From a virus (taxonomy: Duplodnaviria > Heunggongvirae > Uroviricota > Caudoviricetes): 5,037 nt of DNA. Position 1 is the first letter of the stretch, and each line of letters starts with the position of its first letter. Location of the stretch: the IMG/VR virus record IMGVR_UViG_2548877009_000019; one strand, given 5' to 3'. The notes under the pieces are model-generated. The model did no database searches and was not told the origin of the DNA. It worked only from the letters and a program-made list of their open reading frames with translations. Positions 2,298 through 3,911 of the stretch are shown here, piece after piece. Made by a program: the position numbers and the translations under genes.

Positions 2298-2402
2298 TTA
2301 TTCTTTGGGTTCAATACCGCGTTGCTGTAATTCTTTTCGGATTATTCGTTTTATCCAAGCTGCTAAAGAGTCATCACCGTCTTGTTGTTGTGCTTTTTCC
2401 AT
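2298..2402 (-). pseudogene. Possible truncated/diverged paralog (34 codons) of the 2983-3162 small basic protein
   Basis: Hand translation of the minus strand gives MEKAQQQDGDDSLAAWIKRIIRKELQQRGIEPKE. Its 3' end and the following DNA are homologous to the 3' end of the 2983-3162 gene (...CCCAAAGAATAA versus ...ACCAAAGAATCAGAATAA). The N-terminal two-thirds is missing. Confidence 0.25.
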
Positions 2403-2470
2403 CTTTTCCCGTAAGTCAGGATCTAAACGGAACTGGAAAGGAGGATTACCACGCCTTTCATTTTTGTGTG

Positions 2471-2498
2471 TTGACATGTCAATTACACCCCATATAAT
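2471..2498 (+). promoter_or_regulatory. Near-consensus sigma70 promoter (TTGACA, 16-bp spacer, TATAAT), plus strand
   Basis: TTGACA at 2471-2476 and TATAAT at 2493-2498, read directly. A perfect 12-bp palindrome GTGTATATACAC lies just downstream at 2507-2518 (candidate operator). Predicted start site near 2505. Confidence 0.6.
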
Positions 2499-2530: not shown

Positions 2531-2577
2531 TAGCACAAAAAACAACGCCCCGCAGTGATGGGAACACATACGGGGCG
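2531..2577 (-). terminator. Minus-strand intrinsic terminator for the minus-strand sORF operon; same hairpin as module copy 1
   Basis: Stem CGCCCCG / CGGGGCG (2546-2552 and 2571-2577) with 18-nt loop. On the minus strand it is followed by UUGUUUUUUGUG (complement of 2531-2545). Confidence 0.5.
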
Positions 2578-2611
2578 TCTAACCAAACCATTAATTGAGG
2601 TAACGATTATG
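2545..2611 (+). repeat. Leader module copy 1: GC-stem hairpin (18-nt loop), TCTAACCAA, Shine-Dalgarno GAGGT, ATG (2609)
   Basis: Aligns with copy 2 (3291-3356) and, in architecture, with copy 3 (3658-3725). The ORF that starts here (MAIKEHSLLFIHTQT...) matches the P2/P3 N-termini only to HTQT and then diverges, so it looks like a degenerate copy. Confidence 0.6.
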
Positions 2612-2655
2612 GCTATAAAAGAGCATAGCTTACTCTTTATACACACACAAACGCC

Positions 2656-2695
2656 CCGGAAACGGAATAATCCGTTTCATAGTTCGGTTTTGTGT
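2656..2695 (+). terminator. Weak plus-strand terminator-like hairpin ending the short transcript from the 2471-2498 promoter
   Basis: Inner stem GAAACGGA / TCCGTTTC (2659-2666 and 2671-2678, loop ATAA), outer CCG/CGG closure, then UUUUGUGU (2688-2695). The U-run is separated from the main stem by an internal loop. Confidence 0.3.
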
Positions 2696-2697
2696 AC

Positions 2698-2925
2698 TCA
2701 TCCTGGCGGGCGATTCTTACGGGACTTTAGCCGCCGTGGGCAGCTTGCTAAAAATGCCTCCAACGCGAATAGTCCAGGTTTCATTTCTATCGGTATTAGT
2801 TGGATATTCAGAGGATTAGCCAGTTCGGCTTCAAGGCGAGCACAGGTTTCTAACTGCCTTTGCCGAATGATTTCATCTTCTTGCGTCTGCGTGTCTTGTA
2901 TTGGTGATAGTGTGTTGTTGGTCAT
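2698..2925 (-). CDS. Hypothetical small protein (75 aa, starts MTN)
   Basis: Minus-strand ORF immediately downstream of the 2983-3162 gene, separated from it by the 45-bp repeat copy B. Followed on the minus strand by the 2531-2577 terminator. Paralogous start to the 2037-2240 ORF. Weak Shine-Dalgarno. Confidence 0.35.
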   Translation of the reverse strand: MTNNTLSPIQDTQTQEDEIIRQRQLETCARLEAELANPLNIQLIPIEMKPGLFALEAFLASCPRRLKSRKNRPPG

Positions 2926-2933
2926 GGTACTGC

Positions 2934-2979
2934 CCTGTAAAGCAATGCGCCGTAGTACCTCACGCCACGGCGCTGATGG
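2934..2979. repeat. 45-bp repeat, copy B, in the 57-bp spacer between the 2983-3162 and 2698-2925 minus-strand genes
   Basis: Matches copy A (2249-2293) with 2 mismatches. Forms GCGCCG-N15-CGGCGC on the minus strand. Confidence 0.8.
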
Positions 2980-2982
2980 TGA

Positions 2983-3162
2983 TTATTCTGATTCTTTGGT
3001 CTTGCGGCGCTGGCGGCGTTTGATTTCGCCGCGCATGGCTGCGTTTATAAACTGCCCCGTGCTTTCACCTTCTTCTTTCACGTTCTCCATGCCTTCAATA
3101 ATTTCATGGGCAATACGTGCAGTTACAGATTGTGATTTTGCATTCTTTGGACCCGTTGCCAT
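2983..3162 (-). CDS. Small basic protein (59 aa, MATGPKNAKSQSVTARIAHEIIEGMENVKEEGESTGQFINAAMRGEIKRRQRRKTKESE); candidate regulator
   Basis: Start placed at the internal ATG (plus 3160-3162) because it has a strong Shine-Dalgarno GAGGGG with 6-nt spacer; the longer track ORF to 3201 has none. Divergent from the plus-strand operon across an operator-like region. Lys/Arg-rich C-terminal tail. Regulatory role is inference. Confidence 0.55.
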   Translation of the reverse strand: MATGPKNAKSQSVTARIAHEIIEGMENVKEEGESTGQFINAAMRGEIKRRQRRKTKESE

Positions 3163-3182
3163 GTTTAACCCCTCATGTTTTT

Positions 3183-3264
3183 GGTGTAAGACAATATACA
3201 CGAAAAAAAAATATTTTGAAGGGTTGACGTGTAAGACACCGTTATTTTACATTGTGTCTTACAC
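3183..3264. promoter_or_regulatory. Divergent promoter/operator region with GTGT-N3-ACAC palindromic motifs
   Basis: GTGTAAGACA (3184-3193), GTGTAAGACAC (3229-3239) and its exact inverted copy GTGTCTTACAC (3254-3264). A -35-like TTGACG at 3224-3229 overlaps the second motif; the -10 is poor (TTACAT/TACATT). Confidence 0.5.
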
Positions 3265-3290
3265 CTTGTTAATGCAAGGTACAGAAAAGA

Positions 3291-3356
3291 CGAAACCCCG
3301 CAGTGCTGGAACACATACGGGCTTCTAACCAACAACGTAAACTAGGAGCCGTTATG
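3291..3356 (+). repeat. Leader module copy 2: hairpin AACCCCG / CGGGCTT (17-nt loop), CTAACCAA, Shine-Dalgarno AGGAG, ATG (3354)
   Basis: About 90% identical to copy 1 over roughly 40 bp. Outer stem positions differ from copy 1 in a way that keeps pairing (A-U pairs replacing G-C pairs) with one internal mismatch. Confidence 0.7.
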
Positions 3357-3537
3357 GTTGCTGTAAATCATATACCACACCTTGTACACACACAAACTGC
3401 CTTTGTGTGGCGTTTTCTGGCACTGAATATCGGAGAAAAAAACCAGTTGATCGCCAGTGTCGAAAATAGCTATGATTCCCGCGCACCTCATAAAACGGGT
3501 GCCGGGATTGGCGTCCTGGGCAAAACTGAAGCGCATA
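3354..3537 (+). other. P3-paralogous short ORF (MVAVNHIPHLVHTQTAFVWRF...) with no in-frame stop before the 3538-3560 terminator; leader peptide or decayed paralog
   Basis: Good Shine-Dalgarno (AGGAG). N-terminal roughly 30 codons are paralogous to the 3723-3911 ORF with several synonymous differences. The frame runs without a stop through the terminator to 3911, so the 202-aa track ORF is unlikely to be one real protein. Confidence 0.3.
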
Positions 3538-3560
3538 ACACGCGCCCCGCGTGTTTTTTT
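3538..3560 (+). terminator. Strong Rho-independent terminator (ACACGCG-CCC-CGCGTGT followed by a T-run)
   Basis: Perfect 7-bp GC-rich stem (3538-3544 and 3548-3554), 3-nt loop, T-tract through 3560. Plus-strand specific. Lies inside the 3303-3911 track ORF and upstream of the small-ORF operon. Confidence 0.75.
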
Positions 3561-3657
3561 GTGCCGCATAGTCACACCTTATCAATGGTGGGCTGTACGG
3601 GGGCGGAGCAATCCGCGCCGGTTTCTTCAGTGTCCGGTTACGCCAACCCTGTACAGT

Positions 3658-3725
3658 CCGCCACCAGCGAAATTGGCGTTTCCGGTGGCGGTTATCTTAA
3701 CCACACTGAGGAGGCTGCCAACATG
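3658..3725 (+). repeat. Leader module copy 3: hairpin CCGCCACC / GGTGGCGG (18-nt loop), TCTTAACCAC, Shine-Dalgarno GAGGAGG, ATG (3723)
   Basis: Perfect 8-bp stem at 3658-3665 and 3684-3691. Same architecture and spacing as copies 1 and 2 but with a completely different stem sequence. Confidence 0.6.
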
Positions 3726-3911
3726 GCTACTATCCCTACCCTTGTACATTCTCAAACCGCCTTTCTCTGGCGCTTTATCATCTTTGGCGCGTCAGAACAT
3801 CAAATCATCCACGTAACCGCCTGGACGGAACGCGAAGCGCGTAGCCGTTGCCCGTCAGGTTGTGTTGCTGTATTTGCCGCCCGTATTCGTCAGGAGGTGC
3901 GCCATGATTAA
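3723..3911 (+). CDS. Hypothetical small protein (62 aa, MATIPTLVHSQTAFLWRF...); first gene of the small-ORF operon
   Basis: Strong Shine-Dalgarno GAGGAGG (3708-3714) with 8-nt spacer. Stop overlaps the next start (ATGATTAA). Paralogous N-terminus to the 3354 ORF with synonymous third-position differences. Confidence 0.6.
   Translation: MATIPTLVHSQTAFLWRFIIFGASEHQIIHVTAWTEREARSRCPSGCVAVFAARIRQEVRHD

Follow-up and report, generated by a model that had tools for sequence, protein, structure and literature searches.

A hairpin in the early leader of an enterobacterial satellite reads as a minus-strand terminator and may end a short cis-antisense RNA

The hairpin that lies just ahead of the first early gene of this element appears to be built for the minus strand. 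Comparison of related loci strongly supports reading it as an intrinsic (Rho-independent) terminator of that strand, a conclusion drawn from sequence. We also believe, with more confidence than doubt, that it would form the 3' end of a cis-antisense RNA of about 80 nt that blocks translation of the first early gene. The original prediction gave the hairpin two roles, a terminator of a minus-strand operon of short ORFs and a structure of the plus-strand leader. The first of these survives in an altered form and the second does not.

The window, by which we mean the whole stretch of 5,037 nucleotides analysed here, is up to 99.9% identical to E. coli chromosomes, and in NZ_AP027254.1 it forms the left end of an island of about 15 kb with roxA on one flank and phoQ on the other. 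This island encodes an integrase, an AlpA-type regulator, small ORFs, a RepA-like helicase, SSB and PerC, and also capsid, protease, portal, HNH and terminase proteins. By this gene set it is a capsid-forming PICI-type satellite. 'Prophage Sp7' of O157:H7 Sakai occupies the same site.

Two diverged modules stand in tandem in the window, with an overall identity of about 71%. Each has a minus-strand pair, a repressor-like ORF followed by an ORF of 67 or 75 amino acids, and a divergent plus-strand promoter. The plus side of each runs in the same order: promoter, hairpin, conserved leader (UCUAACCAA...), Shine-Dalgarno (SD) sequence and the first icd-like codons. Downstream of module B come isrK, the C4 RNA and an intact icd-like gene at 3723; the icd-like N-terminus that starts at 2609 is a decayed copy of this gene and the one that starts at 3354 is a truncated copy. 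The genes and promoters are as follows.

1-1230, integrase
1605-1793, AlpA-type regulator
2298-2477, minus strand, small repressor-like ORF of module A, 59 aa, ribbon-helix-helix (RHH) by homology to L067
2471-2498, plus strand, early promoter of module A (TTGACA, 16 nt, TATAAT; start near 2505)
2545-2517, minus strand, predicted repressor promoter of module A, abutting the terminator tail, with its -35 TTGTTT at 2545-2540
2698-2925, minus strand, 75-aa ORF, second in the module-B operon; transcription that continues beyond it arrives at the copy-1 terminator
2983-3162, minus strand, repressor-like ORF of module B (RHH), named 'YlcI/YnfO family protein' by PGAP
3224-3253, plus strand, early promoter of module B (TTGACG, 18 nt, TACATT; start near 3260)
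3272-3244, minus strand, repressor promoter of module B (TTAACA, 17 nt, TAAAAT)
3483-3559, plus strand, isrK, by Rfam cmscan
3581-3668, plus strand, C4 antisense RNA (RF01695), which controls the third icd-like start at 3723
3723-3911, plus strand, intact icd-like gene, the third icd-like start

C4 and isrK score 77.6 and 66 bits, both above their gathering thresholds, and cmscan at E<=1 adds a weak match to a1b1 (RF03163) at 3470-3522. A sigma-70 matrix places an isrK promoter at 3447-3476 (TTGATC-18-TATGAT), and its predicted start, 3483, is the Rfam 5' end of isrK. Among the small ORFs of the window Pfam matched only AlpA, and for the Klebsiella homologue it gave a weak RHH/Arc signal. The palindrome ATGTGTATATACACAT, just past the early promoter of module A, is likely an operator. 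The disrupted icd-like copy is annotated by PGAP as an 'ash family' pseudogene.

Some further features of the modules deserve a record of their own. The intergenic stretch of 75 nt between the repressor-like ORF and the next minus-strand ORF (2230-2304 and 2915-2989) is 84% identical between the modules. It recurs in the relative L009 and in Sakai, and holds a GCGCCG...CGGCGC hairpin with an unremarkable z (-0.4 to -1.7). At 1793-1819 on the minus strand, just past the alpA stop, is a terminator-like hairpin with a T-run, which probably ends the minus-strand operon of module A, convergent with alpA. Plus-strand transcripts of module A must cross module B head-on. An open frame of 240 codons runs from the copy-1 start across 2609-3328 on the plus strand, antisense to the whole minus-strand operon of module B, and is probably not a gene.

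The window also contains a complete P1-type immunity set, made up of isrK, the C4 RNA and its targets (3483-3559, 3581-3668, 3674-3680 and 3706-3717). UUGGCGU, the complement of the single-stranded ACGCCAA of C4, occurs at 3507-3513 and again at 3674-3680. Over the SD of the icd-like gene that starts at 3723 stands ACACUGAGGAGG (3706-3717), the complement of the C4 loop UUUCUUCAGUGU. The segment of 360 nt that carries isrK and C4 lies between direct repeats of the icd-like N-terminus (3371-3416 and 3731-3776). It is missing from most relatives, where the copy-2 N-terminus is fused to the copy-3 C-terminus, as in L009 and in the database matches H7-H20, which align to 94% of the window as two separate segments. 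Over the SD of the intact icd-like gene there is also a minus-strand sigma-70-like site of 11.2 bits (3694-3721, TTGGCA-16-TAAGAT), which would drive transcription antisense to C4 and isrK.

The hairpin itself occurs twice, once in each module.

2544-2579, minus strand, terminator stem-loop of copy 1 (SL2), GACGCCCCGUA-U-GUG[UUCCCAU]CAC-UGCGGGGCGUU, 13 consensus pairs
2534-2543, minus strand, U-rich tail of copy 1, with U6 at 2537-2542, overlapping the predicted -35 of the module-A repressor promoter
3292-3325, minus strand, terminator stem-loop of copy 2, arms 3292-3300 and 3318-3325
3282-3291, minus strand, U-rich tail of copy 2, GUCUUUUCUG, by sequence and U-count

Read from the sequence, the 5' arm of copy 1 is ACGCCCCG (2545-2552) and its 3' arm is CGGGGCGT (2571-2578). 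The span first proposed for it, 2531-2577, was in the right place but ended one base short, since the 3' arm ends at 2578. A plus-strand A-run (2537-2542) lies just upstream of the hairpin, so the minus strand reads ...CGGGGCGU-UGUUUUUUGUG, and the U-tract directly 3' of the stem on that strand is UGUUUUUUG. On the plus strand the hairpin of copy 1 is followed by UCUAACCAA and no U-run, which confirms that the U-run is found on the minus strand only. The folding energy of copy 1, over 61 nt, exceeds chance on both strands (plus -18.4 kcal/mol, z -3.3; minus -23.8, z -4.2). What appears on the plus strand to be a loop of 18 nt is mostly paired on the minus strand through G-U, and the minus-strand stem has 14-16 pairs with a loop of 3-7 nt. 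A simple terminator scan of the window did not list the hairpin, probably because the bulged stem falls outside the scan criteria.

Copy 2 is weaker. It had been said to keep a lesser U-rich tail on the minus strand, and it does: the tail GUCUUUUCUGU is the complement of 3281-3291, and the minus fold is -18.1 kcal/mol (z -2.4) vs -23.8 in copy 1, the plus fold of copy 2 being -8.8 (z -0.1). Its 3' arm (3318-3325) lacks one G found in L001, a 99.9% identical strain, and the minus-strand stability of the hairpin is -16.2 kcal/mol here vs -23.3 in L001. The missing G thus explains part of the weakness of copy 2, and its loss may be the decay of one of two redundant copies. The third leader, near 3690-3722, has neither such a hairpin nor a match to the covariance model described below. 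Its start is under the control of another RNA, C4 at 3581-3668, which accounts for the missing hairpin.

To gather related loci, we scanned viral contigs and species-representative genomes for sequence patterns, at first with the loop as anchor and later, to guard against bias, with the conserved leader. This gave 84 distinct region variants with about 40 distinct hairpins. The covariation alignment used 32 distinct hairpins and the energy comparison used 41 unique ones. RNAalifold found 13 pairs in the 32 hairpins, with compensatory double changes in 7 of them. Paired cells make up 98% of the total, as against 39-56% when the partner columns are slid, and none of 500 shuffles reached the observed values. 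The lower stem is conserved, and the upper part is hypervariable yet paired (GUG/CAC, ACUG/CAGU, GGUG/CACC, AAGUGU/ACACUU and others).

It is the wobble pairs that tell the strands apart. Over these 13 pairs in 32 variants the minus strand has 338 Watson-Crick cells, 60 G-U and 8 mismatches, and the plus strand has the same 338, no G-U and 68 mismatches, 60 of them A-C; the variants share ancestry, so such counts overstate the number of independent events. The minus fold is the more stable in 39 of 41 hairpins (means -23.4 vs -17.3 kcal/mol on the plus strand). The C4 RNA, which is known to act on the plus strand and served as the control, gave the reverse result, -46.9 on plus and -35.6 on minus. 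The 9 nt past the stem on the minus strand contain 5.4 U on average and at least 4 U in 31 of the 32 variants, and the sequence there is unconserved. On the plus side the sequence past the stem is always (C)UAACCAA-like in the 32 variants, with no U-tract. The hairpin does not look like a bidirectional terminator either, given the missing plus-strand U-tract and the A-C mismatches in the plus stem. The one-way wobble asymmetry and the U-tail therefore lead us to a minus-strand intrinsic terminator.

Could the hairpin also be a structure of the plus-strand leader, for example one that stabilises the mRNA, marks a site of processing or serves as a regulatory stem of the C4 kind? This half of the original prediction drew on real features, because the plus strand of copy 1 still folds better than chance, the hairpin is only about 40 nt past a consensus promoter, and the adjoining leader (UCUAACCAA...) is highly conserved. 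We nevertheless consider it improbable. The 60 wobble cells are all A-C on the plus strand, where there is not a single G-U, and the plus fold is weaker by about 6 kcal/mol on average. Copy 2 on the plus strand folds at the level of shuffled sequence, and no Rfam family matches, with C4 and its targets among those searched. The conservation of the leader is accounted for by pairing on the minus strand in a second hairpin, to which we return. No selection for a plus-strand leader structure was detected in the covariation of the stem.

A still weaker case is that the inverted repeat works as DNA, either as the operator of a protein or as a cruciform. The regulatory region does hold other operator-like palindromes, but those that flank the hairpin differ between immunity types, and the arms of the hairpin covary freely. 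An element of this kind needs Watson-Crick symmetry, yet 15% of the stem cells are G-T and always in one orientation. Neither a DNA palindrome nor a selected plus-strand structure would tolerate 60 one-way wobbles, and we give the DNA reading very little credence. The asymmetry of G-U and A-C is thus a test that can assign a strand without expression data, and a 'hairpin in the leader' such as this one belongs, for annotation, on the opposite strand.

The next question is what the terminator ends. Copy 1 lies 120 nt downstream of the minus-strand ORFs of module B (RHH 3162->2983, ORF 2925->2698) with no other convincing terminator in between. As the first strong terminator past these genes it plausibly ends their operon. 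The duplicated unit is the whole module, with its repressor, divergent promoters, terminator, second hairpin, ribosome-binding site (RBS) and first codons, and the tandem arrangement would therefore make copy 1 also terminate the repressor operon of module B. Here the original prediction needs to be split. A minus-strand terminator is supported comparatively and the end of the module-B operon is plausible in this window, but the operon-ending role is not ancestral: most relatives have a single module, with no real minus-strand gene upstream of the terminator. In the same way, the module was indeed duplicated as proposed, but its operon-ending role came as a by-product of this, so that the idea of re-purposing is half right.

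The single-module relatives are the more instructive case. In L009, in the Klebsiella record L067 and in Sakai Sp7 the minus strand upstream of the terminator has no real gene, and all of it is antisense to the icd-like early operon. The terminator has been retained there, so something must be transcribed antisense. In L009, as in the window, the terminator U-tract also overlaps the predicted -35 of the repressor promoter (TTGATT in L009), and through this overlap the terminator would insulate the repressor promoter as well.

A second hairpin, SL1, forms on the minus strand in the interval that separates the terminator from the start codon. Its two copies, and the promoters predicted behind them, are these.

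2580-2615, minus strand, SL1 of copy 1, 13 pairs, 7-nt loop CCUCAAU (2594-2600)
2622-2650, minus strand, predicted antisense promoter of copy 1, TTGTGT (2650-2645), 17 nt, TATGCT (2627-2622), start near 2615, 8.9 bits
3326-3360, minus strand, SL1 of copy 2, 10 pairs, 12-nt loop GCUCCUAGUUUA (3338-3349)
3367-3395, minus strand, predicted antisense promoter of copy 2, TTGTGT, 17 nt, TATGAT, start near 3360, 10.5 bits

In copy 1 the SL1 loop is complementary to the SD GAGG (2597-2600) and the 5' arm covers the start codon (2609-2611); in copy 2 the loop is complementary to the SD AGGAG (3344-3348) and the 5' arm again covers the start codon (3354-3356). All 17 unique versions of SL1 are more stable on the minus strand. 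An anti-SD (CCUC or CUCCU) lies inside the apical loop in 16 of the 17, for example in CCUCAAU, CCUCACU, GCUCCUA and GCUCCUAGUUUA, and in the seventeenth CUCCU spans the boundary of stem and loop. The conserved plus-strand leader UCUAACCAA is explained as the complement of the SL1 3' arm.

The pairing of SL1 is also biased toward the minus strand. In the largest class there are 126 Watson-Crick cells, 26 G-U and 4 mismatches on minus, and 126, 1 and 29 on plus; the p2 and Limnobaculum classes add 9 further minus-strand G-U cells that are mismatched on plus. The changes in the largest class are only one-sided switches between G-C and G-U, with no double compensations. When the whole 85-nt RNA was aligned with MAFFT and passed to RNAalifold, only the base of SL1 was recovered. 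The classes use different registers, which is why the whole-RNA alignment is poor and why SL1 was counted per class.

A promoter for this RNA was sought with the sigma-70 weight matrix in the 200 nt downstream of every distinct variant. The minus-strand site that scores highest in most families places its -10 hexamer (TATGAT, TATGCT, TAGACT or TATCAT) at +13 to +18 of the icd-like ORF. The pattern A...TA (TAnnnT on the minus strand) is found at +13 to +18, codons 5-7, in all 30 distinct N-terminal sequences, an invariance that may be partly a protein constraint since these positions fall inside a conserved protein motif (..HTQT..). The residues encoded there vary (N/Q/E/K/H, H/S/D/L, I/T/S/N), as do the preceding codons. 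The predicted start, at about +6, is the first paired base of SL1. In copy 3, read from the sequence, the hexamer at the corresponding place departs from TAnnnT. Poor -35 hexamers (TTGTGT, TGTAAA) go with the predicted promoters, other sites outscore the antisense promoter in some families, and the copy-2 promoter ranks ninth by score among the sigma-70-like sites of the window. The promoter call, a prediction only, is the weakest link in the antisense-RNA model. A different minus-strand promoter, running through the hairpin itself, was rejected because its spacing, read from the sequences, is inconsistent between variants.

The predicted RNAs of 78-83 nt fold into two clean hairpins. Their z ranges from -2.5 to -6.3, and folding the plus strand of these stretches gives only -1.3 to -3.5. 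We built a covariance model of both hairpins, with 26 pairs and 96% of cells paired. It finds 30 copies in 25 sources, and 10 of the 25 sources have two copies. Every copy that was checked is antisense to an icd-like start. In the window the model matches 2534-2615 on the minus strand (96.8 bits) and 3282-3360 on the minus strand (42.3 bits) and nothing else. Rfam 15 cmscan at E<=1 gave nothing at either place, with C4 (RF01695) and the a1b1 targets (RF03163) included in the search.

One could accept the terminator and stop there. On this account the hairpin only stops stray antisense transcription or read-through before the repressor promoter, there is no antisense RNA gene, and where the module is duplicated the hairpin closes the repressor operon upstream of it as well. 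Any terminator on the minus strand could account for the G-U asymmetry and the U-tail. The tail reaches into the -35 predicted for the repressor promoter, modules often occur in tandem (two copies in 10 of the 25 sources), and the antisense promoter is a prediction with weak -35 hexamers. What this account leaves unexplained is SL1, a minus-selected structure that sits over the RBS with an anti-SD in its loop. The TAnnnT hexamer, invariant at a fixed distance, also stands against it. We regard a pure terminator or insulator as unlikely, though less so than any other alternative considered here.

Under the preferred reading, an antisense RNA of 78-82 nt would start about 6 nt inside the icd-like gene, be transcribed back over the start codon and the SD, and end at the terminator hairpin. 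Its 5' hairpin would display the anti-SD in a loop, and pairing with the early leader would probably begin there. Once on the leader of the early operon, the RNA would occlude the RBS of the first gene. By analogy with c4/icd/ant of P1, transcription of the genes behind the icd-like gene would probably be reduced too. The terminator, directly against the promoter of the divergent repressor gene, would shield that promoter, and in the duplicated window copy 1 (2534-2615) would additionally end the repressor operon that the downstream module carries on the minus strand. Three RNA locks would then stand in series in the window, on three icd-like starts: antisense RNA 1, antisense RNA 2 and C4. 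The structure, its covariation and its U-tail are observed on the minus strand; we infer from them, and from the sequence around them, the RNA, its promoter and its effect on translation.

The searchable literature gave no description of an antisense RNA in PICIs or at icd-like genes. In the Hfq-crosslinking (CRAC) catalogue of Sakai no sRNA falls within Sp7, and the EcOnc table is likewise empty around 1.595-1.598 Mb. This absence is weak evidence because cis-antisense RNAs are often Hfq-free and the element may be silent. Term-seq data for strain Sakai are public (GSE143631; PMC7547250). The known sRNA Esr41/EcOnc14 was considered and rejected, as it is located in SpLE1, outside this element, and the paper on the Pas sRNA does not mention icd-like, AlpA or satellite contexts.

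One class of the leader and hairpin is found in 687 of 5,426 complete E. coli genomes, among them the O157:H7 prophage Sp7, which carries pchE. Related copies are found in Limnobaculum, in one Klebsiella phage record and on 106 plasmids of Klebsiella, E. coli and Salmonella. On the IncY plasmid pECO-6dfa (NZ_CP026200.1, 2763-5700) the cassette is directly upstream of the BREX genes brxR (WYL), brxA, brxB and brxC, and consists of a repressor-like ORF, a divergent promoter, the terminator hairpin, SL1 and an icd-like N-terminus.

We tentatively suggest a broader view, in which capsid-forming PICI/P4-like satellites of Enterobacteria would share an undescribed layer of immunity: a family of cis-antisense RNAs of about 80 nt that comes in classes, can be stacked and has been recruited by plasmids. 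If this is true, the family would be defined by a hairpin with an anti-SD loop and a terminator, would have several specificity classes, and would move with the repressor/operator cassette. The cassette would also have been recruited on about 100 plasmids, at least once directly upstream of a brxR-BREX defence operon. Such satellites are very common and shape phage defence and gene transfer, and their switch has so far been described as a matter of proteins (AlpA and repressors). If a cis-antisense RNA also covers the first early gene, it would be a second, fast-acting lock. It would explain a conserved leader beside a mosaic operator region, and mutations in the -10 or the loop would give a handle with which to de-repress or silence the islands.

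The loop of the terminator hairpin needs separate comment, since it first seemed to be universal. A conserved loop CAGUG(N)UGG(G)AACACAUA was rejected once the leader-anchored scans revealed a hypervariable upper stem in the enteric elements, and the ideas that depended on it (a nut-like site, CsrA binding, a tail pseudoknot, a small peptide) were dropped with it. The loop matches in GTDB genomes are mostly chance or lie in YmdB-like genes that code for AVxGTHTH. The exact matches L056, L058, L060, L061 and L064, for instance, come from unrelated bacteria and fall in ..AVxGTHTH.. genes, a YmdB-like metallophosphoesterase motif. With 19-20 specified bases about a dozen chance matches would arise in 600 Gb.

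The same loop pattern occurs in human-gut phage and prophage contigs of 27-29% GC with Lactobacillus-phage-like proteins (L006 at 3515-3560, L036 and L133-L136), which carry an exact copy of the copy-2 21-mer CGCAGTGCTGGAACACATACG. There it lies inside a short ORF with a strong SD (MRVNKKSRSAGTHTT..); its short stem is a different one (AGTCG/CGACT), and the opposite strand has a run of U7. One of the low-GC types shares CTAAC and AACGTAAA with the E. coli leader, and L136 does not. When the low-GC version was compared with phage genomes by BLAST, nothing better than noise at E~6 came up. The shared 21-mer may be due to chance, transfer or convergence. It is also the one point that favours a gene for a small peptide on the plus strand, such as MQGTEKTKPRSAGTHTG.. 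(copy 2) or MRVNKKSRSAGTHTT.. (low-GC gut phages), because in these contigs the 21 nt belong to a short ORF that has a strong SD. Among the enteric elements the frame shifts between variants through 1-nt differences in the loop, the upper stem is hypervariable and no SD is present, and the covariance model does not match the low-GC contigs. We find the peptide the least credible of all the readings.

Of known structures, the hairpin most obviously resembles ordinary Rho-independent terminators in its GC-rich stem of 14-16 pairs and its U-tract on one strand. It differs from them in having no protein-coding gene before it in the ancestral single-module arrangement. The OOP RNA of lambda is a short antisense RNA that starts in the next gene and ends at a strong intrinsic terminator inside the early operon. 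The predicted RNA would share all three features: a start in the next gene, a strong intrinsic terminator and a place in the early operon. OOP differs in covering the 3' end of cII and in acting through RNase III cleavage and not on an RBS.

The c4 RNA of P1 and P7 and the CI RNA of P4 (RF01695) are closer in function, since their target is also the RBS of icd or an icd-like gene and the RNA is the immunity factor. In P1 and P7 the block of icd translation by c4 is said to shut off the downstream ant by polarity as well. C4, however, is processed from the sense (plus) leader and uses two short loops on separate sites. The element described here is on the opposite strand, is fully complementary to its target and gives no match to the C4 model.

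The closest functional analogue is the sar RNA of P22, which has reportedly been described in earlier studies. No relationship to it was found in sequence or in Rfam, and here the RNA is predicted only. Both are short cis-antisense RNAs of about 70-80 nt. Each has its promoter within the 5' end of the gene it targets, or close to it, and runs back over the RBS to an intrinsic terminator. In the immI region of P22 the sar RNA lies over the RBS of ant, and Arc and Mnt are ribbon-helix-helix repressors (PMC2629481). Small ribbon-helix-helix repressors are likewise encoded in the same region of the element studied here. The target of sar is ant, and the target here would be the icd-like gene that heads the early operon of the satellite.
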